Source of the DNA: Reclinomonas americana ATCC 50394
Lineage: Eukaryota
DNA: 20,000 bases
NCBI GenBank assembly: GCA_048213135.1
Contig: PS015201.1
Coordinates: 90,619 to 110,618 of the forward strand
Direction of reading: 5' to 3'
Shown: piece after piece, positions 1 through 19,273 of the stretch
How positions within the stretch are numbered: position 1 is the first letter of the stretch
Layout: each line of letters starts with the position of its first letter
The notes under the pieces: generated by a model
Databases searched by the model: none
Told to the model about the DNA's origin: nothing
What the model saw: the letters and a program-made list of their open reading frames with translations, nothing else
Position numbers and translations under genes: made by a program

Positions 1-258
1 ATGGGAATGGTGCTGGTGCAGCTCGTCACTGGCAAACCGGTGGCCACGGTGGGCGAGTGGTCCGAGGAGTGGCACGAGTCGCCAGAGTCGCTGCGCGTGA
101 TGGAGCTGGTGGATGTCGGGGAGGGCGTGGAGTGGACGCCGCGCGTTGCGGAGCCGATGTTTGCGCTCGGCATGCGGTGCATGAGTTTGCAGGCGAATCG
201 ACCGACGGCGCAGGAGGTGCTCGAGGTGATGCGCGGTGTGCGGGAGGTGTGTGGGTAG
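1..258 (+). CDS. 3' terminal exon (partial) of an IRAK/Pelle-like protein kinase; paralog of the gene at 871-4861
   Basis: MGMVLVQLVTGKPVATVGEWSEEWHESPESLRVMELVD...WTPRVAEPMFALGMRCMSLQANRPTAQEVLEVMR aligns almost residue-for-residue with 4589-4861 (MGVVLAQLVTAKPAKTVSEWSAELDDSPASLRVMRLVD...WTPRVAEPMFELGMRCMSMRHDRPTAQEVVDGMR). This is kinase subdomains IX-XI. The gene starts upstream of the window. Confidence 0.88.
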   Translation: MGMVLVQLVTGKPVATVGEWSEEWHESPESLRVMELVDVGEGVEWTPRVAEPMFALGMRCMSLQANRPTAQEVLEVMRGVREVCG

Positions 259-788
259 ATTGTAAAGAAAGGAGTGATGCATGAGTTGCGATGGGTAGCT
301 CGAGCGGCCCGGCAAAGATAATGTGCATTCGATGGTGGATCGTGGCGTTGCCTGCATGTCGCCAGAACCAGTGACGAGAGCGGGAGAGTGGGAACTGCAT
401 TTAGTGAGCAATGGATCTCAGCTTCAGAGTCCCTTCCACGTTCCAGACCACCTCGTCGTGTTCAGCATGCCTCTGATATGGCTCCGAAACCTAGGGGCAC
501 TCGGAATAATAGGACTGAATCTCAGAAGCAAGTGAGAGACTGCTCTGCTCGTGAGTCTCTTGCACCACACTCCATGCACTTCAAAGAAACCAAGACGTCG
601 ACGTCGCCTTGTCTGAAACTGTGCAGGTACCACACCAGTGAGTCTCTGCGCGATAGTGAGTGAGAGAGAACTAAAGACCTATCGCCGCCGTCGGTGCAGC
701 ATGAGAAGCGCACGACGTCCACTCTCTGACAAGATTTGCAGGACAACAAACACGACAAAACTTGTCGGCGCAGAGAAGGCTGCGTGGA

Positions 789-848
789 GTGCGTGTGTGC
801 GTGTGTGTGCGTGCGTGTGTGTGTGTGTGTGAGAAAGAGAGAGAGACA
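789..848. repeat. (GT)n/(GA)n microsatellite just upstream of the ankyrin-kinase start
   Basis: gtgcgtgtgtgcgtgtgtgt...gagaaagagagagaga. Confidence 0.85.
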
Positions 849-870
849 GTGACAAGCGCCCACCCAAGAA

Positions 871-3800
871 ATGAGCTCGAGGTCTGTCTTTTCCCCGTTG
901 TCAGAATACCTTCATCTCTTTCTCCCTCATCCCTTCCCCTTCATCCCTCATCCCTTCCCCCATCCCCCTCATCCCTCATCCCGCCCTTCCCCCTCACTCC
1001 TCCCTTTCCCTCTTCAGAAAAAAAGCATACGAACTCGCCGCCGCCGGCAACCTCAAATCCCTCCGCAAGCTCGTCGCCCGCAAAGGCGCCCACACCCTCC
1101 TCCAACGCGACGAAATGAGCAGCGGTGGCGGCTCGGCCTTTGACTGGGCCGCCCAGCACGGCCACCTCCCCGTACTCGAGTACCTCTGGGAGGAGAGCGG
1201 CGTCGGCCCGCAACTCGCCCGCCTCGTCAACGACTCGGGATGGACGCCATTGATGGAGGCCGCCTATTATGACCACCTGCCAGTGGTCGATTGGCTGCTG
1301 GCCGATGCGCGACGGTGTCCGCTGGAAATGGTGCTGGCCGTGACCAATGAGCGCTCGTTTGATCCGCAATCGACGGCGTTGCATGTGGCCGCTGTGAAGG
1401 GACATGAGGCGGTGGTGCAGTTGCTGGCCACGAGATTCCCCGAGTTGATGTCGATGGTGGATGCCAAGGGGAAGACGGCGGCGCAGAGGGCACGTACGAA
1501 TGATAGGGTGCAGGTGGCCGAGTTGCTGGAGCGGCTGGCTCAGTCGCCACCGCCACGTGAGCAGGAAGGTGAAGGTGCGGTGTTGTTGTCTGATGCTGTT
1601 CTTGTTTTCCGCTGCTCACTTTTTTCCCTTGTCGTTGCAGGGGTGACACGGCAGGTGAGAGTCCTTCTCCTCCTTGCTCTTCACCTTCGCAGACTCTCCT
1701 TCGTGTCTTGTTCTTTGCCTGCTCTTTTCGGATTTCTTCGTGTCTCTTATTCTTCTCCTCCTCTCTTCTTCTTCTCCTCCTCCCTCTCCTCCGCCTCCTC
1801 CTCCTTCTACAGCCGAGTCTCTTCTTCTTCTTCTCCCCCTTCTCCTTGTCCCGTAACAGCTGAGTCTCTCCGCTCTTCTTCTTCTCTCATTTCATTTTCT
1901 CCTCCTCTTCCTCCTTCTCCACTTCCTCCTTCTCCTTCTCCCCTTCTACAACTGAGTGTCTCTTCACTCCTCTTCGCGCAGAGACTCCATCCACTCCTCT
2001 TCTTCGATTCTTGTTCTTCTCCTGCTTTTCCTCATTTCTTCGTCTTTCTTCTTCTCTCCGTTCTATTTTCTCCTCCTCTTCATCCTTCTCTTGCTCCTTC
2101 CCCATTTCATTCTCCTCTCTGTCTTTCTTCGTCCTTCACCTCCTCATCGTTCCCCGTCTACAACTGAGTCTCTCTCCTCTCCTCTTCTTCATGTCATCCT
2201 CTTCTCCTGCTTTTTCTTCTTGTTGACTGCTCTGGTTTCTTGTACTTCTGGCTCTATTTCCACCTCGCTTTCTTCTACTTCTCCCGTTCGCTCTCGCCCT
2301 CTTCCCTCCATCTTCTTCTCCCTCTCCCTCCCCTCCCTCTCCTTCTCCTCCACCACTTCCTCCTTATCGTTCTTTTTTCTTCTCTCTCCTCATCCTCTTC
2401 CTCTTCTTCTTCTTCGTCTTCGTCCTCTTCTCTCTTCTCCTCTCTTCTCCTCTGTTCTCCTTTCTTCTCTCCATTTTCTTCCCCTTCTTCTTCTTTTCCA
2501 TCTTCTTCTTATCCCCCTTTCTTCCTTCTTTCTTATTCTCCCCTCCCCTTCTCCTCGTCCTCCCCCTCTTATTTCCCCTTGTTCTTCTTCTTCTTCTCTT
2601 CCTCCTTCTCCTCCTTCTCCTCCTTCTCCTCCTTCTCCTTCTCCTTCTCCTCCTCCTCCTCCTCCTCCTTCCCCCTCTCACTTCCCTTCGCAGCCCCCGC
2701 CTGACGACTCGCATCTCACACTCATCGCCGACCTCCAACGCGACCTGGCCGCCGCGCTGCAGGAGCGCGCCCAACAGCAGCTGGAGTGGGACCGACAGCG
2801 ACGAGAGCACGAGGACACCATGGCGCAGCTGCAACAGGCCATGGCCGACCTGCAGCACGGCAACGCGGCGGGGCAGCAGCAAGTCGCGCACCTGCAGCGT
2901 GCGCTGGCCTACGAGCAGCAGAAGAACGCCCAGTTGCAGCGCACCAACTCGGAGCTGCAGCAGGCGCACGCCGGCGAGCTGCAGAGGGATGCCCAGCTGC
3001 AGCTTGCGCAGCAGCAAGTCGCCCAACTGCAGCGAACCGTCGCCGAATGCCAGCAGCGAGCGGATCAGTGGCAGCGAGCCAGCGCGGAGAAGCAGGCTGA
3101 GCGGGATCGAATCGCCGCGCAGCTGACAGTGGCGTTGCACGACAAGGACGAGCTCACCACGCAGCTTCAGGAGAAGGAACATGTTGTCGCGCAGCTGCGA
3201 CTGGAACTCCTCCTCGCGCGAGGTCTGCTTCTGGCTGTTCTTTTTTTGCGCCGCCTTATTCTCAATTCGCTGCAGTTCACACGTCGGTGCAGCGTTTCGA
3301 GTGGGCGGAGATTGAGCAGGCCACCAACTCATTCGCGGATGACCTGAAGGTCGGTGAGGGCGGTCAAGGCGCCGTTTACATCTGCAATCTCCAGGAAGCC
3401 CATGTGGCCATCAAGGTGCTTGATCCCGAGGCCCCGTGGACGATGGAGTCGTTTGAGAGTGAGGTCTGCCTCGTCCTTTTCTGCTTCTATTTCTTTCTGC
3501 TCATCTGTCTGCAGGTTGCCACTCTCGGGCGCCTGCGCGACCGTCGCATTGTGCCTCTTGTCGGTTATTCGGTGGGCGACGACAGGGCGCGTTGTCTCGT
3601 TTACAAGGCCCTGCAGTGCGTTGTTCATTGATCTCTCTTTCTCCATCATTGCCTCACTTAAAAAGCACGCAGAGTTCCCAACCTGGAAGATCTGTTGCTG
3701 CTGCCGCGTGCCGGTCGTGTGCCACTCTCTGTCGTGCAGCGTGTGCAGATTGGTCTCGGACTGGCTGAGGCTGTGGCCTTTTTGCACAAGGTTCGCACCA

Positions 3801-4468
3801 CCATCTAGTCAGGGACCTTGCTCTCTCTCTCTCTCTCCCTCGATTGCCACAACTCTTTTCACTCTCTGTCATGTTTTTTATTCCCCACTCTTCGCTCATC
3901 CTGCTCCTTCTTGTGTCACCATCTTTACTTTCTACCGTTCTGTCATCATGCCTCATCACTGTTGCTCCCCTTGCCGCACACATCGTTCCTCTTCCATCTG
4001 TCCCTCTCTCGCCCCTGCTTTTCTCCATCTTTGCGTTCCGCCGTTGTGCCTCTGTCACTCTTGATCCCCTTCCGCACTCTTCGTTTTGTCATGCTCCTCC
4101 TGTTTTCCACTCTCGCTGCTTTCTGTCATTTTCTCTCAGTCGCTCTTCGTTCCCCCCTTCTCCTCCCGTTGTTCTCTCCGTGCCTTCAGTCTTCGTTTCA
4201 GCTTCCACCCTTCTGTTTTGCTTTTCTCCTCCCTTCGCTCACTCTCCTGCATTAGATGCTCACTTCCCTCATCTCTGTTCTCTCTTTCACGCGCTTTTCC
4301 GCAGAATGATGTGGTGCACCGCGACATCAAACCCGCCAACATCCTCCTCGACCACAAGCTCGAGCCTTGCCTCGGCGACTTTGGCATCGCGCGATCGATT
4401 GCAAGTGACAAGGTACGAACTCTTCTTCTCCTTCTCTTCTCTCCTCGTTCCTCGTCTCCCCTGTCTCA

Positions 4469-4500
<32 letters not shown>

Positions 4501-4861
4501 GTCAACGACCGCCGCCGGCACCATGGACTACATGGACCCACTGTCGCTCCGCATTCGTCGCCCGCTGCCGAAAAACGACGTGTACTGCATGGGCGTGGTG
4601 CTGGCGCAGCTGGTCACCGCCAAGCCGGCAAAGACGGTGAGCGAGTGGTCGGCGGAGTTGGACGACTCGCCAGCCTCGTTGCGCGTCATGCGGTTGGTGG
4701 ACGCTAGTGCGGAGTGGACACCGCGCGTCGCCGAGCCCATGTTCGAGCTCGGCATGCGGTGCATGAGTATGCGACACGATCGACCGACGGCGCAGGAGGT
4801 GGTCGACGGGATGCGTGCACTGCGCGAGGCGTGCGGGCGGTACACGTCGGTTGTTGCATGA
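871..4861 (+). CDS. Ankyrin-repeat + coiled-coil + IRAK/Pelle/RLK-like kinase (multi-exon)
   Basis: Hand-built exons, all GT-AG and phase-consistent: 871-881, 1018-1574 (alternative donor after 1568), 1641-1654, 2694-3222, 3276-3463, 3515-3615, 3673-3790, 4305-4412, 4502-4861. Ankyrin motifs: SAFDWAAQHGHL, GWTPLMEAAYYDHL, STALHVAAVKGHEAVVQLL, DAKGKTA. A Q/L-rich heptad coiled coil follows. Kinase motifs: RFEWAEIEQATNSF...VGEGGQGAVY, VAIK, FESEV, IVPLVGYS...CLVY, LSVVQRVQIGLGLAEAVAFLH, HRDIKPANILL, GDFGIAR, GTMDYMDP, DVYCMGVVL, RPT. Confidence 0.9.
1655..2693 (+). repeat. ~1 kb intron of CT-rich low-complexity sequence
   Basis: GTGAGA donor at 1655 and TTCGCAG acceptor at 2693. The interior is almost all C/T (ctt, cct, ctcctt units). 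Confidence 0.85.
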
Positions 4862-5467
4862 CGACTGTGGCGCGTGAAGGAAGAGCAGAGGTGGCCATGA
4901 GACAGACCGTGTCCACGGTCCGGATCAACCAAGTGCATCCGTTCTCTCAGGAGCACAGAAGAGTGTGAGCTGCAATTGACAACAACGATTCATTTACCAC
5001 TGTCTTGATGACCAAGTTCAAGCACATGCAAAACATTAACACAAACACCAATCTTGAGGCAACAGCAGGTTTCATGTGTGTGTGTTCGCTCTCGGAGCTC
5101 CGAACAAGTCGAGAACTGCGATCTTCACCGCGTTAGCGTGGTTGACCAGTGGATTACGAACTTGAATTATGTCGTCACAGCACCAAGAGTGCTACAACGA
5201 TCTCGAGTTCAGCGTCTTCGAAGGTCACTGACGCCAAGTGCGCCACGAAGTCTTTTGAGCTCGATACGCGATTGCCTCCTGAAAGGGAAGTTGAAGACGA
5301 CTGTTGCAGTTCTGTCTCTCATCGATGAAGCTGCAGCTCTAAAGGTCAGAGAAAGAATCCGTGATCGAAGAACGTTAACGCAGCCTTCATATGCATATGC
5401 ATGGCTTCTTCTCGTTCTTTCCGTGATGTCTGAGTTTCTGGTGCTCACTCTGGTGATCATCACGCAG

Positions 5468-8124
5468 CTGTGTTGCTGTTTGGATTGGTAAAGTTGTTGT
5501 TGTTGTTGTTGTCGTTGTGCATCGCTCCTTCTGTTCTGCAACATCGCCAATGCATTTGTCGGGTTCGGAAACGGCTTCCTGTTGTCCGGCACACTCTCGT
5601 CCTCTCTCTTTCTCTCTCTTTCCTCAGCGCGCGCGGATGCGCGACTGCCTGTGTGCCCTCCACGATGCCTTTTGTTGCGTGACGCCCCCTGCACACACAC
5701 ACACACACACTCCACACTTATCTCACGCTCACGCTCACCACACAGGGCCATGTGTGTGCACAACAACATGGTGAGCAGATACTCCGACCTCTCACACACG
5801 CTCATTCACTTGCTCACAGCCGCACAGCTGCATTGCCCAGTACGCCATCAACTACATCAAACTCCGTTCGTCCCTCTCCGCCTGCTCTCCCTCACTCATC
5901 TTGCGATCTATTGACATGCCTCTCCATTCAGAGCGATACAAGGAGTACAGTCGATTATCCATGTTTCACAGCTTCGACAAGTGCTTCGACTGCGAAGAGT
6001 CCATCAGCTGCTGCATACAAACAGCTGCAGGTGGGTAGATATCGTGCTGCATGCACAGGTACTTCTGTGTTGTTGACTCACCTTCATTGCAGGTTCTCTT
6101 TGTTTCTGTGGTGTTGCGTTACTCTGTATCATTCCAGCTCCCATTGCATCTCATGCCTTGATCTCACTGCTGCTTTTTTTGAAGCTGCCCGGTGTCATGG
6201 CAGAATTGGATCCGGACTACGCGCAGCTGCAGGAGGATGTTGACAACACGGACTATCGTGAATGCTGTCGGTGTTTCTTGTCGTGCAACTTTTGGTGTCG
6301 TTGCGTGATCATCTCTGAGTCGTCTCACGTCTCACGTCTTGTCATTTCTTGTCCTCCTTCCCACTTTTCTCTGCTCTATGTGCCTCCTTCCCCCTTCCGG
6401 GATCCCCTCTCACTCCACGGACTTGCCATCTCACGCGATTGCATCACAGACTGTTGCCTCCCGTTCTGTACCGTGTGCTACACTGGGTACCGCCTCAACA
6501 GAATACAACGCGCCTACGGTGCCGGATTGCCTCCACGAACAAGCATTCGCCGCGAAGCAGTCTCCCCTGTATCCTCGCGACTAGCGGATCCGGCGGGCGA
6601 TGCCTGGCCAAACTCTATCAGCTCACCGCGAGTGGAGATGCGGCCAGCACCACCCCCTCCAGCAAGAGCACCTCCTCCACCACCACCACCACCACGAGCG
6701 GCTACTGCTCCGTATGTGCCCGTGACGGTGCGTCGAGTAACAGATGGCTCACTGCGTTGCGAGTCGTGCCTCGGCAGCGACTCCGGAACCGCTGTGTACT
6801 CCTTGCCATGTGTGCACGGCATCCACGCCGAGTGCTTGGTGGCTGCGCTGCGTGACGACTTGCAGGCCGGCAGGAAGGTCCGATGCAGTGCCACAGGCTG
6901 CAATCGAGGTTCGCGCACGAGTGAAGTGAGGGTGCGTCTTCTTGTACATTGCACTCACTGGGACGATCAGAGGTGCCACCGGAGATTGTGGGATCGGCAG
7001 TGGCCGACCAGCATGTCAAGCCACTGGGCGAGGAGTACAACGATTTCCTCAATCGCCAGTTTGTCGAGTCGGTGTTGCATGGCGTGTCGTGCCCGAATCC
7101 GCAGGTGAGGCGAAGAGAGGAAAGGAGAGGCAAAGGGAGTGGCAGAAGGGGAAGGGAGAGAGAGGGAGAGAGGGAGAGAGAGAGCGCGCGCGCGCGCAGA
7201 CTCAAGGAGGAAAGGAACAGGCAGCATGCAGCGTTGGTGTGGACTCGAATGGGAAGGGAATGGGAAAGACATGCATGCAAGAGAATTTGAGAACAGGAGT
7301 CCAGCGGATAGAGCCAGCAGACTGCAAAAAGATGAGAGGCGGAAGAGGAGAGCGGCATGAATGGAGTGCTCTTGATCATTGCAGTGTCGACGGATGGTGG
7401 AGGCCGCTGAGGTGGGGCAAGTGTGCATCAACTGTGCTCAGTGTGGAACAAGGTGAGTGGGGGTGAGAGAGAAAGCAAGAGAGCAATTCTCTTCGGGCAA
7501 AGCGCCTTCTTGTACCTCTCTTCACACCGCCTTGCTCTCTCCCTCCGCACCAATTCTCTCGTCAACACACAGCTTGCTACTATTCATTAATTCCACCTTT
7601 TGTGTCACCGCCACCAGGTTGTGCTCACGGTGCGGCTGTCGCCGTCCACCCACCGCCACCACCTGCGACGTGTGCGACGACGCCGAGCGCGCCCTCAACA
7701 CCGATCTGCAACGGTGTGGCACCAAGCAGATCAGTGGCCTTCCTGGTGCGGTGCCCGAAGTACGCGCCTGCCCGCGGTGTCGGAACTTGCTGTGTGAGTC
7801 TCCGGATCCCTGTCTGTTTTGCTGCTGCAGCTGCTCACGATGCATGTACAGCGCACATGGAGGCATGCAAGCACGTCAAGTGTTCGCAGGTGTGTCGTGG
7901 AGGGAGGGTGCACCTCTCTTGCCTCCGAAACTGACAGCTGTTACGTTTGTAGTGTCAGTCCGAGTTCTGTTTCCGCTGCCTGCAAATCCGGCCAGTGGGC
8001 GGCGTGTGGCCGTTGCGTGTGCGGCTGTTTCCCGTACGGGCTTCATGGTCCTCACTGCAACTGCACTTGCAGGTGTGGCTCGTTCAGCCACCCCTGCCCA
8101 ATCGCACCGCGACAGAGCTTCTGA
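5468..8124 (+). CDS. Cys-rich/hydrophobic (PLAC8-like) N-terminus + Pro-rich linker + RBR-type E3 ubiquitin ligase
   Basis: RBR exons are well supported: ..6908, 6971-7104, 7385-7452, 7618-7793, 7852-7889, 7953-8011, 8073-8124. RING1: CESC...CVHGIHAEC...CSATGC. IBR: CPNPQC...CAQCGTRLCSRC...C. RING2: CPRCRNLLSHMEACKHVKCSQCQSEFCFRC; the protein ends CPIAPRQSF*. Upstream exons 5932-6030 and 6093-~6257, then 6450 onward, give FDKCFDCEESISCC...LCFCGVALLCIIP...LISLLLFLKL...CCLPFCTVCY. The 5'-most microexons (5468-5487, 5746-5770, 5828-5839) and the start codon are uncertain. Confidence 0.8.
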
Positions 8125-10703
8125 GTGTGGCATCGCGTTTCAATTCGGCGGACTGTCAGACGAATATGCAAGCCAGCACGTGTACGTTGACTCCAACATG
8201 TACAGGCTCGACACTGGAGCGATCAATTCACCGACGTCGACGTCGGCGGCGTTCGACGCACTCACTAATATTGTGATGGAAAGTGGTGCAACACACAAGA
8301 AAGCAGGGAGCAGCGGGGTGAACGAGGGCGAAGGCGCATGAGGAATGAAACGTCGAGCGACCGAGATGTCGTCAGGACGAACAGACAACAAGTTGAGTGG
8401 AGAGTGGGTGTTCACTGCTGCAGTCTCCTTCAGCTCCGAATCAAGAAGATATGAGGTCTGTTTTTGTGCTCATTGTTCCGCACTCCATCTCGCTCACAAC
8501 CACACACACACAGCGGAACAATGGATCTGATGCAATTGGCATGGGATGGCGATGAGAAGGCACTGCGCGAGGTGGTGGCGCGTGAAGGAGCGCAGTATCT
8601 GATCAGCAGCGAGATGATTGCTCGACACGCAGGCTCTGTTTTCCATTTCGCTGTTGGCGGAGGCCATCTCTCTCTGCTGGAGTACTTGTGGGCGGAGACG
8701 GGCGTGGGACCACAGTTCGCACATATGATCAGCGGCGAGGGCTTCACACCGCTGATCATGGCTGCCTATCACGGGCATCTACATGTGGTTGAGTGGTTGC
8801 TGGCCGATGAGCGACGATGTCCACTGGAGACAGCGTTGCAGGTCGACTTGTACAAGCGCTCTGCGTTGCATTACGCTGCCCTGCATGGCCACGAAGCCAT
8901 GGTGGAGCTGCTTGGCACTCGTTTCCCCGAGCTCCTTCCGCTGACCGACATTTGGCGGAAAACAGCGGCTGAGAGCGTGTCACTGAGTCGACAACCATTC
9001 TTGGCGATTGCCGAGTTGCTGGACCGCCTTGCGGCGATGCCACGCCGCCAGAGACAGCCGCTATTTGGCCCACCAGAAGGTGTGGTGCAGATGTTGATGA
9101 GTGCTCCTCTTGCTTCCCACGCTGCCTCATTGTGCGAAATCATGTGCAGTGCCGGTAGTGCGGGTGAGACGAACGATGCTGCATTCTGTTAATGTTTTTG
9201 CACACATATTTTGTGCAGGCTCACAAGGTTGTGGACGAAGACCCGCTCAACGCACACCTCCAAGTGCATCGTATATTGGATGGCTCCCTTCGTTGCGAGA
9301 CGTGCCTCGGTAGCGACTCCGGCACCGCTGTGTACTCCTTGCCATGCGTGCACGGCATCCACGCCGAGTGCCTGGTCGCAGCGCTGCGTGACGATTTACA
9401 GGCCGGCAGGAAGGTCCGATGCAGTGCCTCCGGCTGCAATCGAGGTGCGCGCACGAGTGGGGTGAGAGTGCATCTTCTTGTACATTGCACTCACCAGGAC
9501 TATCAGAGGTGCCACCGGAGATTGTGGGCTCGGCTGCGGCCGACCAGCATGCAACCCCGCTGGGCGAGGAGTACAACGAATTTCTCAATCGCCAGTTTGT
9601 GGAGTCGGTGTTGCATGGCGTGTCGTGCCCGAATCCGCAGGTGAGGCGAAGAGAGGAAAGGGAGAGGCAGAAGGGGAAGGAAAGAGGAAAGAGAGAGAGG
9701 CAAAAGGGGAAGGGAGAGAGAGGGAGAGGGGCGAGAGAGAGCGAGCACAGAGTCAATGTAAGGGAACAGGCAGGTACGTTGGTGTGGACTCGAAAGGGAA
9801 GAGAATAGGAAGGGTACGAAACTTACGAGAGAAAGAGAGGGAGAGTGGACTTGGGGTGTGAATCGGACAGAGTGAGGGAAGCAGTAGACTGCAATAAAGA
9901 TGATAGGCAAAAGACGACAGCGGCATGAACGCCACTGTGACTGAGTGCTCTTGATCATCGCAGTGCCTACGGATGGTCGAGGCCGCTGGGGTGGGACAAG
10001 TGTGCATCACCTGTGCTCAATGTGGAACAAGGTGAGTGGGTGACAGAGAAAGCGAGAGAGCCATTCTCTTCGGGCAAAGCGCCTTCTTGTACCTCTCTTC
10101 ATACCACCTTGCTCTCTCCCTCCGCACCACTTCTCTGGTCAACACACAGCTTGCTGCTAGTCATTAATTCCACTTTTGTGTCACCGCCACAAGGTTGTGC
10201 TCACGGTGCGGCTGTCGCCGTCCACCCACCGCCACCACCTGCGACGTGTGCGACGACGCCGAGCGCGCCCTCAACACCGATCTGCAACGATGCGGCACCA
10301 AGCAGATCAGCGGCCTCCCTGGTGCGGTGCCCGAAGTACGCGCCTGTCCGCGGTGTCGGAACTTGCTGTGTGAGTCTCCCTGTCTGTTTTCCGCGATAGA
10401 GTACTTCTCACGACGCATGATCATGAACAGCGCACATGGAGGCATGCAAGCACATCAAGTGTTCGCAGGTGTGTCGTTGAGCCAGGGTGCACCTCTCTTG
10501 CCAGTGAGTCTCAAATCAGTTGCGTCTGCAGTGCCAGTCCGAGTTCTGTTTCCGATGCCTGCAAATCAGGCCAGCGGGCGGCGTGTGGCCGTTGCGTGCG
10601 CGGGCTGTTCCCAGTGGGTTTCTTGCAACTCGTCCTCACTGCGATTGCAGGTGTGGCTCGTTCAATCATCCCTGCCCGATCGCACCGCGACAGAGCTTCT
10701 GAG
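6740..10703 (+). repeat. Direct segmental duplication of the RBR cassette: ~6740-8125 vs ~9277-10703
   Basis: Exons are nearly identical and most introns align by eye, e.g. ttctcttcgggcaaagcgccttcttgtacctctcttca in both copies. Similarity stops right after the shared stop codon (cagagcttctgag). Confidence 0.93.
8451..10702 (+). CDS. Ankyrin-repeat + RBR-type E3 ubiquitin ligase (multi-exon)
   Basis: Exons 8451-8455, 8514-9079, 9150-9163, 9219-9444, 9507-9640, 9964-10031, 10194-10369, 10431-10468, 10532-10590, 10651-10702; all GT-AG and phase-consistent. Ankyrin motifs: SVFHFAVGGGHL, GFTPLIMAAYHGHL, RSALHYAALHGHEAMVELL. The RBR part is nearly identical to that in 6740-8124, with ACKHIKC in RING2. 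Confidence 0.87.
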
Positions 10704-10825: not shown

Positions 10826-13800
10826 ATGAGCACACCTCGTTGCCTCCCCGTGCTGCGCGCTCTTCTCTTCACACTCGCACTTTCACTGGTGCTGCTGATG
10901 GCAACGGCCAGCACCCACGCTCGTGCTCGTGGTGAGCGGACGATCGAGGAGGATCTCCCACTTTGTACTCAGTTTCTCTCGCTCGTTCTCTCTTGTCTCT
11001 TGTCTTGCCTTCTTTTCTCTTTCTCCTCTCATCTCTCTTTGTCTTCACGTCTCTTCTGTTCACTCCTCTCTCATCTCATTTCATCACTTCTATTCTCTCT
11101 CCTCTCCTCTCCTGTCTTCTTCTCATCTCTCCTCTCCTCTCCTCTCCTCTTGCCTCTCCCCTCCTCTCCTCTTGCCTCTCCCCTCCTCTCCTCTTCCTCT
11201 TCCTCTTCCTCTTCCCCTTCTCTTTCTCTTTCTCCTCTCCTCAGCTCTTCTCTCTCTCTCCTCTACTCTCTTCTCCTCTCCCTCACTTAAGCTCTCCTCG
11301 CCTCGCCTCGCCTTTCCTCTCCTGTCCTCCACTTTCCTCCCTCCTTCTCCGCCTATTCTCCTTCTCCTCTCCTCTCCTCTGTTTGCCCTCTACTCTCCTC
11401 TCTTCTCCTCTCCCTCTCGTCCTTCGTCTTGTCTCCTCTCCTCTTCTCTCCTCTCTTCTCCTATCCTCTCTTCTCCTCTCCTCTCCTCTCTTTCTCTTTC
11501 CCTTCTCCTCCCCATCTCCTTCTCTTCTCCTCTCCTTCTCCTCCTATCCTCCTTCTCCTCTCTTTCTCTTCCCCTTCTCCTTCCCTTCTCCTCTCCTCTC
11601 TTCCGCCTTCCCATCCCTCCTCTCTCTCCTCTCCCTCTCTCTTTGCCCTCACCTTCCCCCTTTTCCCCACAGACTCCTCCGACATCCTCACCGCCCTCGA
11701 CGAATACCTCGCCGACAGCAACANNNNNNNNNNNNNNNNNNNNNNNNNNNNNNNNNNNNNNNNNNNNNNNNNNNNNNNNNNNNNNNNNNNNNNNNNNNNN
11801 NNNNNNNNNNNNNNNNNNNNNNNNNNNNNNNNNNNNNNNNNNNNNNNNNNNNNNNNNNNNNNNNNNNNNNNNNNNNNNNNNNNNNNNNNNNNNNNNNNNN
11901 NNNNNNNNNNNNNNNNNNNNNNNNNNNNNNNNNNNNNNNNNNNNNNNNNNNNNNNNNNNNNNNNNNNNNNNNNNNNNNNNNNNNNNNNNNNNNNNNNNNN
12001 NNNNNNNNNNNNNNNNNNNNNNNNNNNNNNNNNNNCCAGCCAACACCTCGCCTTCGCCTCGGCGGAGAAGTCCGGCAGTGTCATTGCGCAAGAAACCGCC
12101 GTGACCATTGTCGAAACGATTCCGCTCTTCAACGAGTGGATGACGGCGAATGGAGTGGCGGCGGTGGAGACCGGTCGGTACTTGCGAACGTCGGTGTCGC
12201 TGGGTGATTTGGTGTTCCAGGCGGGCACGGCGGCGTGCCTGTTGCAGTGTCGGTCGACGAGTGTGAATGATTTGGATGCGTGGTGAGTGGAAGGGGGATG
12301 GGAGGGGGAAGGGGACGGAGGGGAGAAGGGGAGAGATACACGAGCAGGTAGAAAGGAAAACAGAAGAGTGGAAGGAGAAAGCGCGACAAGCAGCAGAGAA
12401 AGAAATGAAGCTGACAGGTAGGAGAACAGTGTATGCGAGGCGAAGGGGAAGAAGGAGAAGAAGAGAGAGATATGACCAGAGAGAGAGGCAGTGACACGAT
12501 AGCGCAGTCCGTTTACGAAAAACGAAGAAGGAATAGCTTTGAGCCACATAAAGAAACAAGAAGAAGCACCCACAGTCAAGAAGTGAAGATGCAGCGAAAG
12601 AACCTGAGCAAAGTCATGTGAGAGAATGCACTCTGTGCAGACAACAACGAGACTCGGGCATGAAGAAAAGAGATCTCCGTACTCCGTCAGAGTGTCTGTG
12701 ATGCAGAGAGAAGCACGAGGAAGAGCACCACAGCCAACCACGACGACGAAACAGAGAAATAGGAGAAGAAGCATCTGCAAAAACCGAGACTCAGCGAGAT
12801 ATGAAGGAGATCTCCATTCTCCGTCAGAGTGTCTGTTATGCAGAGAGAAGCACGAGGAAAGGCACCACAGCCAACCACGACGACGAAACAGAGAAACAAG
12901 AGAAGAAGCACTCACTCAGCGATAAATGAAGGATACCTACATTCTCTGTCAGAGTTTTTGCATCCCGTGTCACACAAAGAGAAACATAAGATGCGAAGAG
13001 ATTAGGAGCACGAGAAGAAGCACTCTTTTCAGGCATCGAGACCCAGTCATGAACACGAGAGACCTGCAGACTCTCAAGGAGACACAGACAGTCACTGACT
13101 GCAAGGACTGGCAAGAGACAGAAAACATCTCACCTCTACTTCCCCTTTATCCCCCCTTCCCCTTTATCCCCCCTTCCCCTTTATCCCCCTCCCACAGGGT
13201 CATCCCCGGCCNNNNNNNNNNNNNNNNNNNNNNNNNNNNNNNNNNNNNNNNNNNNNNNNNNNNNNNNNNNNNNNNNNNNNNNNNNNNNNNNNNNNNNNNN
13301 NNNNNNNNNNNNNNNNNNNNNNNNNNNNNNNNNNNNNNNNNNNNNNNNNNNNNNNNNNNNNNNNNNNNNNNNNNNNNNNNNNNNNNNNNNNNNNNNNNNN
13401 NNNNNNNNNNNNNNNNNNNNNNNNNNNNNNNNNNNNNNNNNNNNNNNNNNNNNNNNNNNNNNNNNNNNNNNNNNNNNNNNNNNNNNNNNNNNNNNNNNNN
13501 NNNNNNNNNNNNNNNNNNNNNNNNNNNNNNNNNNNNNNNNNNNNNNNNNNNNNNNNNNNNNNNNNNNNNNNNNNNNNNNNNNNNNNNNNNNNNNNNNNNN
13601 NNNNNNNNNNNNNNNNNNNNNNNNNNNNNNNNNNNNNNNNNNNNNNNNNNNNNNNNNNNNNNNNNNNNNNNNNNNNNNNNNNNNNNNNNNNNNNNNNNNN
13701 NNNNNNNNNNNNNNNNNNNNNNNNNCGCCCTCGACTCTCGCTGTCTCTATATTCGTCCCTCGTCGCCACTTCTTCTGTCCTTCCTTCTCTCTCCTCCTCT

Positions 13801-14760
13801 CTCTCTCTCTCTCTCGTTTTTTTTCTGCACGCAGGCTGCCCTTTTGCTATTTCCCTTCTCATTCCCACTTTCCGCACTTCATATCAAATCCCCCTACCCC
13901 TTGCCCTTCCTTCTTTCTCTCCCTCTCTCTCCCGTCTGTAGCTTGTCTTCGCCATCTCCTTGTTTCTCTTTCCTATCCCACGCCACCACTCCTCGTCACC
14001 TCCTTTTTCCCTTCCTCTCTCTCTCTCTCGCTCTTGTATGCCTCTCAATCCAATCTATTTTCTTCTCTTGCCCCACTCCCAGTCTTTTTCCCTTACTGTG
14101 TCCGTTTCTTTCGCCAATCCCACACTTTCTTTTCTCGCCCCGCCAAGTCACCGCTATTTCTCTCGCTCTCTCCTCGCGTGTCCTCATTTCTTTTCTCTTG
14201 CCCGGCTCCCAGTGCAGTCCCTGTCGCCAACAAAGCTCCTCACTTGCCTTTGTTCATTCAGTTCTCTTTACTTTTCTCCTTCTTTGTCGCTCGCTTTTTT
14301 CCCACCCCTCTTCACCCTTTTCCCGTTTCCCTTCGACCATCGCCTTCCCTTCTCCTCACTCCCTCCCTTTCCCTCTATTGCCCCATTTCCCTCACCCCCT
14401 TTTCCCATTCTCCCTTTGCCTTTCCAGAGCACCAAAACGCCCAACTCGGAGAAAATCTGCACGGGCAACTGGGCGGAGATCGCCGAGTTTGTGCGCACCA
14501 ACGAGGCCATCGTCATCGCCGCCGTCAAGAGCACCCACAAGCCCGCACAAGAAATCGACTTTGGCTCTGGCGAGCTGAAGCTGGCCGTCGGCGACAACGC
14601 CGAGAAGCAAGCCATTCGGCTCACCGACAATGCCGGTGCGCCGTGGACGTGGGCGAAGCGGTGGCCGGAGACCGCGGTCATCAGTGGCAGCAGCGGCAGT
14701 GACGGCACCACCATGCAGCTGCTGTCGTTTGCCATGCTGGAGTTCGAGGAGGAGGAGTAA
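10826..14760 (+). CDS. Uncharacterised signal-peptide-bearing (probably secreted/luminal) protein, interrupted by two assembly gaps
   Basis: Exon 10826-10931 (MSTPRCLPVLRALLFTLALSLVLLMATASTHARAR, signal-peptide-like; phase-1 donor GTGAGC) joins 11673 (DSSDILTALDEYLADSN, then gap). After the gap, 12036-12282 is coding-like with a phase-2 GTGAGT donor that joins the acceptor at 13198 (W-VIPG, then gap). The last exon 14428-14760 (STKTPNSEKICTGNWAEIAEFV...LEFEEEE*) has GC3-rich codon usage. Linkage across the gaps is inferred. Confidence 0.65.
10932..11672 (+). repeat. CT-rich low-complexity intron
   Basis: GTGAGC...CCACAG boundaries with (ctcct)n-type units inside. Confidence 0.8.
11724..12035. 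other. Assembly gap
   Basis: Run of N. Confidence 0.99.
12650..12955. repeat. Intronic tandem repeat, ~137 nt period, two copies plus a partial third
   Basis: agatctcc...ctccgtcagagtgtctgt.atgcagagagaagcacgagga...caccacagccaaccacgacgacgaaacagagaaa occurs at ~12671 and ~12808, with a degenerate partial copy at ~12926. Confidence 0.85.
13212..13725. other. Assembly gap
   Basis: Run of N. Confidence 0.99.
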
Positions 14761-15832: not shown

Positions 15833-17732
15833 TCCAAACTCTAATCTGACAACACAAACAGCGCTCGGCGTGCGACCTATCATGCACATGACACGCGCAC
15901 TCTTCTCCAGTGACGCCACGTCATCGGAGAAGCCCTCCACTCCGACCACACCGAGTACAGCCGCGGAAAAGGTCATCTTGCAAGCTGTCCGCGACTCAGT
16001 GGCCGCCGGACAGAGCCCGTGGAAATGGTGAGCAACGAAAGCAGCGGCCGCTCACCACAGTGGACGATGACTGCTCACAACGACGCACAGGAAGAGCTTC
16101 CTTCCCGAGCACACGTATCCTGCACTGGAGCACGCAAAGACTGTGGATCTGTCGCTGCATCACCCGACGCGGACGTTTGGCGATCGTGTGGCGTACTGGG
16201 TGGTCAAGGCGATGCGCGTGCCCACGGATATGTTCTTTAAGCGCCGATATGGTCACCGGTGAGTATCGCCACTGGCCACAGGAATTAATAGGGACTACTA
16301 CAGCTATATACTGACGACTCCAATTGCCAGTGCATGCATGCTGGAGACGGTGGCGGCTGTGCCGGGTATGGTGGGCGGTATGCTTCTGCACTTCCGCTCG
16401 CTGCGTCGCTTTGAGGAGTCTCGCGGGTGGATTCGAGCGCTGCTTGATGAGGCGGAGAAGTTGCGACTTGTGCCGGCAGCTGTAGTGGTTGTGGTTTGTT
16501 TGCTCATCGTTGATGCAGTGAGCGGATGCATCTGGAGGTGTTTATGGCGTACTCGAAGCCGGGTCTCTTTGAGCGCTTCTTGGTTATGGCCACTCAGGTT
16601 CGCTTGTGCTGTATGCCACCCTCAACTCGGGCGTGGATCCCATATCCGCTCTTCTCTTTCGTCGTCCTCCGTTGCGCGTTTCTCTCTCTTGCTCTCTCTC
16701 TTTCTGTCTCTTTTTCTCGCTCTCTTTCTTTCTGTCTCCGCCTCTCTCCCTCTTTCTGTCTCTTTCCATCTCTCTCCTTCTCTGTCTCTTGTTCTCTCTT
16801 ATCTGTCTCTCTCAGAGTCTGTCACTCTCTCTCTCTCTTTCTCGCCCTCTTGCTGTCTCGCTCTCTCTTTGTCACTCTCTCCTCTCCCTGTCTCGCGCTC
16901 TCTCTTTGTCTGTCTCTTTCTCTCTCACTTTCTGTCTCTGTCTCTCCTCTCCTGTCTCGCGCTCCCTCTTTGTTGGTCTCTCTTTGATTCTATCACTCTC
17001 TCGTTGTCTGTCTGTCTCTCTTTGTTTCTGTCTCCCTTTCTCTCTTTCTCACTTGTCTCTCGCTCTCTCTTTGTCTGTCTCACTTTGTTTCTGTCTGTCA
17101 GTTTCTTTCCCTCTCCCTCTTCCCTCTTCCCTCTCCTCCTCCTCCCTCCTCCCTCCCTCCTCCCTCCCTCCCTCCCTCCCTCCCTCCCTCCCTCCCTCCC
17201 TCCCTCCCTCCCTCCCTCCCTCCCTCCCTCTCATATCTACCTCTCTTCCCCTCCACGCAGGTTGTATTCTCCACGGCATACACTGCGATTTTCATCATAT
17301 CACCAAAGGTGAGGTCTTCAGTTGCCTGTCGACTGCTTGTCATCGTTGAACTCATCACGCGCTATCTCATCAGACGGCCCATCGAGTTGTCGGCTACCTG
17401 GAGGAGGAAGCCATTCACAGCTACACCGAGTTTCTGAAGGACATTGAGGAGGGCATCATTGAGAATGTTCCGGCGCCCGAGATTGCCATTGTTGCGTCGC
17501 GTCGCGTCGTGCAGTTGGCCCCCCTCCCCTACTCACGTGTTTTTTGATGCAGGCCTACTGGCGCTTGCCAGCGAATGCCACGCTGAAGGACGTGGTGATT
17601 GCCGTGCGCAGCGACGAGGCCGGTCACCGCGACGTGAATCACTTGCGGGCCAATTATCTAGAGGCCGGCAAGGTCGACGAGGCTGCGCCGCTCGGCCCGC
17701 ACCCGCAGGTGCCGCCGGAGAAGATTTTGTAG
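15733..17732 (+). CDS. AOX: Mitochondrial alternative oxidase (ubiquinol oxidase, di-iron carboxylate)
   Basis: Exons 15733-15781, 15862-16027, 16091-16258, 16331-16459, 16519-16597, 17261-17308, 17374-17490, 17553-17732. Signature motifs [34 protein letters not shown] and [12 protein letters not shown] are all present. The N-terminus [33 protein letters not shown] resembles a mitochondrial presequence. Confidence 0.96.
16598..17260 (+). repeat. AOX intron with CT-rich filler and a (CCCT)n tetranucleotide tract at ~17150-17230
   Basis: Directly visible; GTTCGC donor and ACGCAG acceptor. Confidence 0.85.
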
Positions 17733-18241
17733 GCCATTGCAGCAACTGATGGTCATGCTCTCTCGTTTGCCCTCCTAATTCACTGTCGTTGCAAAAGTGG
17801 AGAGTGAATCCTCAATAGACTATTAATTTAAGGTGACGAAAGTCTCTCATTTTTGAGAAGGGCCCCTCTGTTCCCCTACCCCTTCCCCTTCCGCCTTCCC
17901 CCTTCCCCCTTCCCCCTTCCCCCTTCCCCCTTCCCCTTTCTTCCCCCTTCCCTTCCCCCTTCTCCCCTTCCGCCTTCTCCTTCTACCCCTTCCCCCTTCC
18001 CCCTTCTCCGCCTTCCCCTTCCCCCACTTGTCCCATGTCCGTGTTCAGAAATTCTTTTCGAACGCGCAGCGAAAAAATGCCACTCCTCCTCCCCCTTCGC
18101 CATCGTCGCCGCCGTTGCCTCGCTGGTGGCGGCTGCTGCTCCTCCCACTCCTCACCACCCACACTCTCACGACCCCCTCGAGCTCCTCCATCGTCTTCGC
18201 CACCACCCTCGAACACAGGAGAAGCATACGAGTGGCACGCC

Positions 18242-19273
18242 ATGAACGCCTCCTCCGACCCACGCTCTCCCTTTCGCACCAGCTTCACCTCGGTGGCCGT
18301 CACACGCGACGCGCAGTACATTATCTGCGGCAGCGTGGACGGCTCTGTGCATGTGAGGTCAACATCAAGTGGCCAACTGGTGCGACGCTGTGTGGGCCAC
18401 ACGGGCGACGTCAACGCAGTGGCCGTAGTGCGTGGCGAGGAGAGCGAGGAGGGCGCCAGCGCAGGCGAGCAGCGATTCGTCAGCGCCTCCAGCGACAAGA
18501 CGTTGCGCGTGTGGTCGCTCGCCACCGGACAAACAGTGCGCACACTCGCCGGCCACGACGGCGCCGTGACGTGCCTGGCCGCCTCACGCGATGGGCGACT
18601 CGTGGCCAGTGGGTGCAGTCGGCCAGAATTCGGAGTGCGCTTGTGGGGCGCCACGGGAGGTGCGCCACGACCGCCGGCGCTCTACCTGCTCACGGCGCAC
18701 ACCAACACCGTGACCGCTGTTGACATTTCGCGCGACAGTCGCCTGGTCGTGAGCGGTGGCGCCGACTGCATCGTCAATCTGTGGTCCGTGGCCACGGGCG
18801 ATATCGTGTGCTCGATTGGTGACATGGATCGAGCGTGCGCCGTGCGCGCAGTGGCGTTTTCGGGCAGCGGACATTTCGCGTTTGTCGGCACCACTGCTCC
18901 CGCGGTGGAGGTGTGCTCGGTGCCAGGTGAGCAGGAGGAGCAGCAGCAAAAGGACGCACCCGACGGGGACGACGATGAGCTGGCCGCCGTGCACCAGCTG
19001 CCGGGCCATAGCCATGGAGGAACGCTGTGCACGTGCATGGCGGTGCGGGAGGACGGCCGCATGCTGGCCACAGGTGGCGCCGACGGTCGCTGCGCGGTGG
19101 TGTCGCTCGCCACGGGCGAGGTGGTGAGCAGCGTGGACCACAACGAGTGGGTGATGGGTGTGGCGTTCACGCCAGAAGGCCGTCACGTGGTCACCTGCAG
19201 TCGCGACTGCACGATCAGAGTGGCGCGAGTGGACAGTGGGCTGGTGGAGCGGGTATTAGAGTCGGCGGGGTAG
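18242..19273 (+). CDS. WD40-repeat beta-propeller protein
   Basis: About 6-7 WD repeats: GHTGDVNAVAV...SASSDKTLRVWS; GHDGAVTCLAASRDGRLVASG; AHTNTVTAVDISRDSRLVVSGGADCIVNLWS; DHNEWVMGVAFTPEGRHVVTCSRDCTIRV. The start is uncertain: in-frame ATGs at 18035, 18077 and 18242, and a possible acceptor at 18218. Confidence 0.88.
   Translation: MNASSDPRSPFRTSFTSVAVTRDAQYIICGSVDGSVHVRSTSSGQLVRRCVGHTGDVNAVAVVRGEESEEGASAGEQRFVSASSDKTLRVWSLATGQTVRTLAGHDGAVTCLAASRDGRLVASGCSRPEFGVRLWGATGGAPRPPALYLLTAHTNTVTAVDISRDSRLVVSGGADCIVNLWSVATGDIVCSIGDMDRACAVRAVAFSGSGHFAFVGTTAPAVEVCSVPGEQEEQQQKDAPDGDDDELAAVHQLPGHSHGGTLCTCMAVREDGRMLATGGADGRCAVVSLATGEVVSSVDHNEWVMGVAFTPEGRHVVTCSRDCTIRVARVDSGLVERVLESAG

Follow-up and report, generated by a model that had tools for sequence, protein, structure and literature searches.

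A 20,000-nucleotide stretch of the Reclinomonas americana ATCC 50394 genome (contig PS015201.1, positions 90,619 to 110,618; G000:C193:90619-110618), hereafter called the window, carries four adjacent genes in the same orientation, the last of which appears to unite the front end of an ankyrin family with the catalytic module of an RBR (RING1-IBR-RING2) ubiquitin ligase. The assembly is a fragmented 108-Mb draft of 16,441 contigs, and no gap (N) occurs between window positions 1 and 11,723. All gene models were built from DNA alone and spliced by coordinate, and those of all four genes are open with GT-AG boundaries at their introns.

Only the 3′ end of gene 1 lies in the window (1..258, + strand). 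It is the tail of a complete 673-amino-acid ankyrin-coiled-coil-kinase that starts at G000:C193:87274, approximately 3.3 kb upstream of the window. Gene 2 (871..4861, +) encodes a protein of the same architecture with 661 amino acids in nine exons (871-881, 1018-1574, 1641-1654, 2694-3222, 3276-3463, 3515-3615, 3673-3790, 4305-4412 and 4502-4861), as evident from the spliced model and its Pfam Ank and Pkinase matches. Gene 3 (5750..8124, +; 419 amino acids, 12 exons) combines a Cys-rich, tentatively PLAC8-like N-terminus with a Pro-rich linker and an RBR, and gene 4 (8451..10702, +; 450 amino acids) joins ankyrin repeats to an RBR in ten exons (8451-8455, 8514-9079, 9150-9163, 9219-9461, 9509-9640, 9964-10031, 10194-10369, 10431-10468, 10532-10590 and 10651-10702). 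A first-pass annotation had described four neighbors that share modules pairwise, and the spliced models agree. The kinases of genes 1 and 2 are 67% identical over the 85 amino acids within the window (E 5e-36) and 78% identical over 286 amino acids of the full gene 1 model, the ankyrin regions of genes 2 and 4 (ANK2 and ANK4) are 48% identical over 183 amino acids (E 4e-48), and the RBRs of genes 3 and 4 (RBR3 and RBR4) are 92% identical over 242 amino acids, or 84% over 1455 bp of DNA with introns counted. Pfam searches with individual exon pieces return Ank matches (E 1e-18 and, for Ank_2 in gene 4, E 8e-22) and Pkinase, with weak matches to RING families.

The exon structure of gene 4 indicates that it is a real chimera. 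Genes 2 and 4 have in common a short first exon of phase 2, a single large ankyrin exon (1018..1574, + in gene 2, recognized by Pfam Ank and genome search; 8514..9079, + in gene 4) and a 14-nucleotide microexon that ends in phase 0 (1641..1654, +, phase 1 to phase 0, in gene 2; 9150..9163, + in gene 4). This microexon pattern recurs in 54 of 127 copies of the family, compared with 2 of 127 control stretches. The next exon of gene 2 (2694..3222, +) is Gln-rich and predicted to form a coiled coil, with only weak matches to coiled-coil Pfam families, and exon 4 of gene 4 still begins with a remnant head of this family exon (9219..9263, +). When scored with a profile of 54 family exon heads from which gene 4 was left out, these 15 codons rank second among 29,031 15-mers of the window, exceeded only by the motif of gene 2 itself. 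Likeness to gene 3 begins approximately 60 bases into exon 4 and stops at the stop codon, which places the fusion point just after the remnant, at ~9264-9279 and inside the exon. From there, the RBR of gene 4 (9279..10702, +) is a copy of that of gene 3 (6743..8124, +) with all six introns. The junction can be read directly, and we infer the direction of copying, with gene 3 as the likely donor.

Two other constructions of this gene were considered and set aside. Exon shuffling at the phase-0 intron is ruled out because the junction falls within the following exon. Separate ankyrin and RBR genes are disfavored by the lack of any Met codon between the ankyrin region and residue 323, which lies in the IBR.

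Both RBR copies appear to be maintained. Their synonymous divergence (dS) is 0.227 and their non-synonymous divergence (dN) 0.028, for a dN/dS of 0.12, and with two outgroups each branch carries 10 synonymous and 6 non-synonymous changes (16 are unresolved), such that neither copy is decaying. The source of the ankyrin exon is another matter. The earlier proposal that gene 4 combines a front end of the gene 2 type with the C-terminus of gene 3 stands with regard to the family and the RBR, but gene 2 itself probably did not donate the ankyrin. Of the 127 copies, ANK4 sits on the longest end branch, and its identity to any other copy does not exceed 59%; ANK2 ranks only 83rd of 126 by identity to ANK4, at a dS of ~2.1 compared with 0.64-0.75 for the nearest others. 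These values disfavor gene 2 as the donor, although the ankyrin tree does not reject it.

A different history would have an old ANK-RBR fusion whose RBR has been kept similar to that of gene 3 by gene conversion. Such a history could account for likeness that ends at the stop codon, for introns that are 76-94% identical, for a 3′ flank whose alignment score falls within the shuffled range (-25, where shuffles average -40 with a maximum of -6), for uneven dS (0.29 across codons 1 to 126 and 0.16 beyond them), and for the distance of ANK4 from all of its relatives (dS 0.64-0.75 at best). However, conversion would need to have been full-length, since identity is 76-97% in each of the module's exons and introns, whereas a single copying event from RING1 to the stop codon yields the same boundaries, and the remnant of the coiled-coil head is still recognizable. 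We therefore consider conversion to be a serious but rather unlikely alternative to copying of the gene 3 module.

By domain order and catalytic residues, genes 3 and 4 qualify as RBR E3 ligases, with their activity predicted. RING1, IBR and RING2 occur in order with zinc ligands present in the models and the family alignment, and the RING2 catalytic residues are Cys376, His378 and Glu387 in gene 3 and Cys407 (codon 10445-10447), His409 and Glu418 in gene 4. These three residues are invariant in 10 of 10 paralogue exons and align to the RING2 of ARIH1. Both modules match over their whole length a hidden Markov model of 109 outside relatives (E ~7e-46). Most outside relatives match Pfam IBR, but the exons of genes 3 and 4 do not, and a genome scan with IBR_1 misses RBRs of this type because their exons are short; a search with the IBR/RING2 exon alone as the query also gave no match.

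Library searches return 245 relatives at E ≤ 0.001, and among 150 of these (P0121-P0270) the catalytic motif is present in 126 and a C-terminal Cys-x-x-Ala-Pro-x-Gln tail in 117. Named relatives among the ten looked up include proteins from Pelomyxa and Paulinella and a scallop RING-B-box protein. In 85 relatives scanned for domains, 25 carry a ubiquitin-like (UBL) front and none displays Ank or PLAC8, with one of the 85 having a sixth family beyond those displayed. The window RBRs thus fall, by sequence, in a widespread family of small RBRs that often bear a UBL, and they match these relatives across the whole module while differing from them at the front. Kinship with HOIP/HOIL, RNF19 and RNF144, which the first-pass annotation had cited as examples of RBR ligases in innate immunity, found no backing in any test run. 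Among solved structures, the RING2 profile matches ARIH1 and ARIH2 alone (E 2e-5), whose Cys, His and Glu residues align. Unlike these proteins, the window RBRs have neither an Ariadne domain nor a UBA, and at the second zinc site in each of IBR and RING2 they carry Cys instead of the His typical of Ariadne proteins. In gene 4, no Ariadne, UBL or UIM domain was found and the stop codon follows the RING2 tail. Our search of open-access papers found no literature on a small RBR family with the Cys-x-x-Ala-Pro-x-Gln tail.

The front module of gene 3 (5750..6541, +) has four other matches in the genome, each located ahead of an RBR of the same subfamily. The label PLAC8-like is a lead only, based on ESM feature scores of 0.85-0.86 to PLAC8 clusters (PF04749 label). 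Pieces of the module have no Pfam match to PLAC8, and it is absent among the nine PLAC8 matches in the genome. One of these nine, a conventional PLAC8 gene (L201; G000:C215:68305-68655), is not obviously similar to the front of gene 3, which appears to lack the C-terminal Cys-rich third seen in L201.

Fusion of RBRs to new fronts is widespread in this genome, which holds ~13 other matches to the window-type subfamily and 37 to a second subfamily. Besides the PLAC8-like module, fronts read by eye comprise an SH3-like repeat, tails that are Pro-rich or putatively myristoylated, a membrane region of several helices, and an ectodomain with one membrane helix; the terms SH3 and myristoylation are our assumption, and Pfam gave no match. 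Two genes of the window subfamily show the membrane types: L077:1044-3663 (G000:C5413) lies behind an apparent ectodomain and membrane helix, and L082:3300-6000 (G000:C46) behind a multi-helix membrane region. On another contig (G000:C636:1-24714; L137, L140, L145, L092, L143 and L187), five genes of the second subfamily stand in a row, and where their fronts were read they differ (Pro-rich, Pro repeats, ankyrin, and Arg/Pro-rich).

The ankyrin-bearing member of this row provides a second ANK-RBR gene. Its ankyrin and RING1 share one intron-free frame on C636, an arrangement repeated on C1779, and exon shuffling at a phase-0 intron is ruled out here also, as there is no intron at the join. A third candidate, on C402, has ankyrin, TPR repeats (Pfam TPR_12 E 2e-31) and then an RBR, with a join that spans a 178-base gap and is thus probable only. 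In a 28-row RBR tree, in which all rows except those of genes 3 and 4 were pieced together from tblastn matches, some of them incompletely, genes 3 and 4 are sisters (100/99) and the C636 gene pairs with a neighbor that has no ankyrin (100/98). Approximately unbiased (AU) tests reject a single clade of all ankyrin-bearing RBRs (p 6e-78) and also a grouping of C636/C1779 with C402 (p 3.6e-5). The ankyrins of C636 and C402 are nevertheless sisters with 93% identity even though their RBRs do not form one clade, and this is the incongruence between module trees that had been named in advance as a sign of shuffling. The sequences therefore indicate that the ANK-RBR join arose two or three times, with the first two evident and the third, on C402, probable.

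The ankyrin exons belong to a much larger population. Genome searches with two ankyrin exons gave 476 (the exon of gene 2) and 464 candidate places, of which 150 were scored each time, and together yielded 192 listed places on 88 contigs. Of approximately 470 candidates, 127 were classified, a sample biased toward copies nearest ANK2 and ANK4. The sequence that follows the ankyrin exon in these 127 copies is a kinase in 75 (in two, a tail fragment only), another ankyrin exon in 24, a HEPN-like domain in 8, an RBR in 4 (one pair of which looks allelic), something else in 15 and unknown in 1. Those inspected among the 15 are largely ankyrin plus coiled coil only. ANK-RBR is thus represented by three distinct genes. 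A two-way split of the kinase types proved unreliable because in-frame introns lowered identity, and the types were pooled. The idea that one ankyrin family is wired to either kinase or RBR output is borne out, though not as a property of this cluster, since the family is genome-wide and RBR output is rare.

The window is best read, from its sequence, as the downstream edge of an array formed by this family of soluble ankyrin proteins, which is lineage-specific and greatly expanded. A possible upstream continuation had been raised, and gene 1 is indeed complete, while C193 holds four further ankyrin genes in 12.5 kb of upstream sequence, three with a full kinase and one with a kinase tail only. 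Contigs C3292 and C3293 repeat parts of the array at 85-94% nucleotide identity and are haplotype-like. C3293 carries an extra ankyrin-coiled coil-kinase gene (L035, G000:C3293:4500-7062) between its counterparts of genes 1 and 2 that is absent from C193, so that gene content differs between haplotype-like contigs. The rapid turnover proposed earlier for the locus is supported.

Some arrangements in and beyond the array depart from the common pattern. On both haplotype-like contigs, an ankyrin-short coiled coil gene is followed by a kinase tail only (L034:4660-6216, G000:C193:85278-86834; L037:4788-6345). A related coiled coil-kinase without an ankyrin front (L032:1000-4374; G000:C193:~61600-64990) has LRR-like exons upstream (weak LRR_4 match) that may be its front end. 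Elsewhere, up to five ankyrin exons ~800 bases apart precede one kinase (L106, G000:C49:283-6400; L103-L104, G000:C52:112000-121500), and these runs suggest multi-ankyrin genes.

Beyond this genome, the 120 listed of 527 ankyrin-exon matches among longer proteins are generic ankyrins of 24-39% identity, and none of the 120 carries an IBR or PLAC8 accession, a weak negative given that long proteins crowd the list. Conserved orthologues with the same architecture, which would have spoken against a shuffled locus, were not found in the sets searched, and the open-access papers searched contain no description of the ankyrin family or of a PLAC8-RBR protein.

Variation within the ankyrin unit sits at hairpin tips and inner helices. 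After rows at least 90% identical were removed, the 127 copies gave 114 rows, in which entropy averages 2.96 bits at 18 predicted binding-face columns compared with 0.87 bits elsewhere (p 1e-10). These columns come from the ankyrin consensus, with one helix position added after the entropy profile was seen, and we take their positions to be those used in designed ankyrin libraries. The predicted binding face is hypervariable by this measure. In 300 of 932 pairs of 75-90% identity, moreover, non-synonymous change at the face (pN 0.50) is greater than synonymous change at the other columns (pS 0.21).

The usual partner of the ankyrin domain resembles an RLK/Pelle-IRAK kinase. In gene 2 the kinase exons (3276..4861, +) encode the Gly loop, VAIK, HRD and DFG motifs, with Tyr at the gatekeeper position and Leu in place of the APE Glu. 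The roles of the gatekeeper and APE positions are well known, and a Tyr gatekeeper is a mark of RLK/Pelle-IRAK kinases. The best PDB matches of the kinase C-lobe are BRI1, IRAK4 and BIK1 (E 1e-12 to 1e-11), as obtained with a gene-1-type copy (L002:178-729, in-frame intron included) that is ~63% identical to the gene 2 C-lobe over the part that aligns. Catalytic motifs are intact as in these kinases, and the ankyrin and coiled-coil regions replace the death domain, ectodomain or membrane helix. Indeed, no death domain or ectodomain (Pfam) and no membrane helix (maximum 19-residue hydropathy 1.3) was detected in the ankyrin kinases.

A third output may exist. Ankyrin-coiled coil-HEPN-like-kinase genes (for example, L098:989-3358 on the minus strand, L087:6147-8431 and L180:1606-4558) carry an R-x4-H motif, with kinase sequence behind the domain where checked and, in one comparison, no match to the gene 2 kinase. 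The HEPN-like exon has 42 matches in the genome, 20 of which follow a listed ankyrin at a distance of 3 kb or less. The domain scores 0.94-0.95 by ESM to HEPN_DZIP3/DUF4559 clusters and has no Pfam match; its structure model had a predicted local distance difference test (pLDDT) score of only 44. From its sequence the domain possibly acts in RNA cleavage. Two outputs had been envisaged for the family, and both the kinase and the RBR are found, but the list was incomplete in view of this HEPN-like-plus-kinase combination.

Several known systems share parts of this design. The ankyrin-RBR architecture is already known in animals, where human ANKIB1 has an ankyrin-RBR-Ariadne-UIM layout, is recruited through its UIM, and makes K11 chains in TLR3/4 and cGAS-STING signaling (PMC12992118, PMC3940038). 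ANKIB1 resembles gene 4 in having N-terminal ankyrin repeats before the RBR, whereas gene 4 stops directly behind RING2 and lacks both the Ariadne domain and the UIM. The ankyrin of gene 4 moreover comes from a hypervariable family with hundreds of members, and its RBR duplicates that of a neighboring PLAC8-like-RBR gene. The two architectures, compared by layout, are for these reasons most likely convergent. Fungal NLRs combine effector domains with repeat sensors and place variable sites on the concave ankyrin surface (PMC4986451; Dyrka et al., 2014). A hypervariable repeat surface is common to both, but fungal NLRs have a NOD, whereas the family studied here has no NACHT/NB-ARC and carries its sensor at the N-terminus in direct fusion to the enzyme. 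DZIP3-type HEPN domains of animals are fused to ankyrin, TPR, RING or NACHT (PMC3710099), and ankyrin, HEPN-like (R-x4-H) and kinase domains are likewise joined in the relatives outside the window. The order here is ANK-coiled coil-HEPN-kinase, whereas that of RNase L is ANK-kinase-KEN.

We consider it probable that these genes encode a diversifying ankyrin binder with an exchangeable C-terminal enzyme, and that gene 4 became an ANK-RBR protein by fusion. The default output would be a coiled coil and an IRAK/Pelle-type kinase, as in genes 1 and 2, where binding probably switches the kinase on via the coiled-coil stalk. A genomic copy of the gene 3 RBR that ran from RING1 through the stop codon, introns included, would have been joined in frame to an ankyrin gene approximately 15 codons into the coiled-coil exon, thereby removing the stalk and kinase and presumably converting a signaling receptor into a tagging enzyme. 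RBRs pass ubiquitin from an E2 at RING1 to the RING2 cysteine and then to the substrate (PMC3940038). By analogy, gene 4 would most likely act as a one-chain E3 ligase in which the ankyrin face grips a target and RING1 holds E2~ubiquitin, with ubiquitin then passing to Cys407 and on to the target. The RBR tree shows that the same pairing formed separately with other RBRs elsewhere in the genome.

What drives the diversity of the binder is less certain. Recognition of foreign or fast-changing proteins is the most likely cause, an assignment we hold with somewhat less than even confidence. This weakest step of the proposal draws on the variable face, the copy number, the haplotype-like difference in gene content, and the company of IRAK-type, HEPN-like and RBR domains. 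A role in defense is plausible on this basis.

A number of observations weigh against the proposed binder-enzyme system or its role in defense. AU tests on a 34-row ankyrin subset (10 focal rows and every fifth other row) retain both ANK4 with ANK2 (p 0.75) and ANK4 with the C636/C402 ankyrins (p 0.73); there is little signal in the ankyrin tree, and the case for separate origins is consequently carried by the RBR tree and the junction structure, the former with some incomplete rows and the latter with a gapped join at C402, as noted above. The excess of face pN over pS comes from pairs that are non-independent and binned by identity, and it is absent in the 14 closest pairs (face pN 0.014). 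The kinases are of the RD type and lack the APE Glu, whereas pattern-receptor kinases are usually non-RD. NACHT and NB-ARC are absent from the models of genes 1 to 4, and there is no NOD switch. Finally, the RBR fronts of this genome include Pro-rich, putatively myristoylated, membrane and PLAC8-like types as well, so that exchange of front ends is a general process for which no immune cause is required.

This last point leads to a neutral account, in which copies of a hyper-expanded ankyrin cassette and of a promiscuous RBR family undergo birth and death and fuse by chance at the borders of arrays, leaving gene 4 as a tolerated ligase that has a housekeeping target or none in particular, with no defense system behind it. 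Consistent with such an account, RBRs take many unrelated fronts and ANK-RBR genes are rare (3 distinct genes among 127 copies), broken or truncated family members exist (C193:85278), ANK4 has the longest branch with a non-face dN/dS of ~0.4 relative to its nearest relatives, and rearrangement of E3 architectures is general in eukaryotes (PMC4327156). However, purifying selection acts on both RBR branches and all ten exons of gene 4 are in frame. Family variation is also concentrated on the binding face, and the pairing recurs with different RBRs. Neutral assembly therefore seems unlikely to us.

The binder-enzyme arrangement could instead serve self/non-self recognition between cells, or the handling of prey or symbionts, with outputs that amount to ordinary signaling and turnover. 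An RD-type kinase would, we presume, fit general signaling. Hypervariable ankyrin faces are found in fungal NLRs, a class that includes incompatibility genes (PMC4986451). Against this reading, the HEPN-like output with its R-x4-H motif points to conflict or suicide functions (PMC3710099), albeit with a HEPN identity that is putative, and we regard this alternative as quite unlikely.

An assembly artefact, in which the two RBRs would be tandemly merged alleles and the ANK-RBR join spurious, is highly improbable: the draft is fragmented, contains the haplotype-like duplicates C3292 and C3293, and offers no second contig that covers genes 3 and 4, but the RBR dS of 0.227 compares with ~0.08 for allele-like copies of gene 2, which argues against the haplotype merging that had been raised as a concern, the region is free of N, the junction is in frame inside a recognizable exon, and two contigs (C636 and C1779) carry an independent ANK-RBR join.

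Several other features occur in the window. Between genes 2 and 3, a fragment at ~5001-5167 belongs to a dispersed repeat with 1149 candidate copies (~90% identity among 40 scored). Other copies stay alike past the end of this one, which is probably a truncated mobile element by sequence. Rfam has no match anywhere in the window, this fragment included. The next gene (10827-14760) starts 125 bases after the gene 4 stop codon, opens with a signal-peptide-like hydrophobic stretch, contains two assembly gaps, and looks unrelated to the array; two pieces of it gave no Pfam match. Farther downstream are an alternative oxidase gene (~16263-17730; Pfam AOX E 2.5e-15, one exon) and a WD40 gene (18206-19273).

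Taken furthest, the proposal of an ankyrin binder with exchangeable enzymes describes an intracellular receptor repertoire without NOD modules, in which several hundred ankyrin binders, diversified on their binding face, would be wired directly and by repeated recombination to IRAK-type phosphorylation, RBR ubiquitination and HEPN RNA cleavage. Such a repertoire would have arrived independently at the defense logic of IRAK, ANKIB1-like and RNase L-like proteins, and in gene 4 a signaling receptor would recently have become a binder that tags its target with ubiquitin; we advance this extension, in both of its parts, only tentatively.

Little is known of how free-living protists recognize and eliminate invaders inside their cells. 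In this organism, the donor, the junction and the selection of a fusion can all be read in one 11-kb stretch, and that fusion links two families, the hypervariable ankyrin kinases and the RBR ligases with swapped fronts. If the role in defense is true, the family would offer a concrete and testable set of receptors and effectors, along with a library of natural ankyrin binders that carry their own ligase. If it is false, gene 4 and its counterparts would still constitute a clear case of the repeated, convergent origin of an ANKIB1-like architecture.

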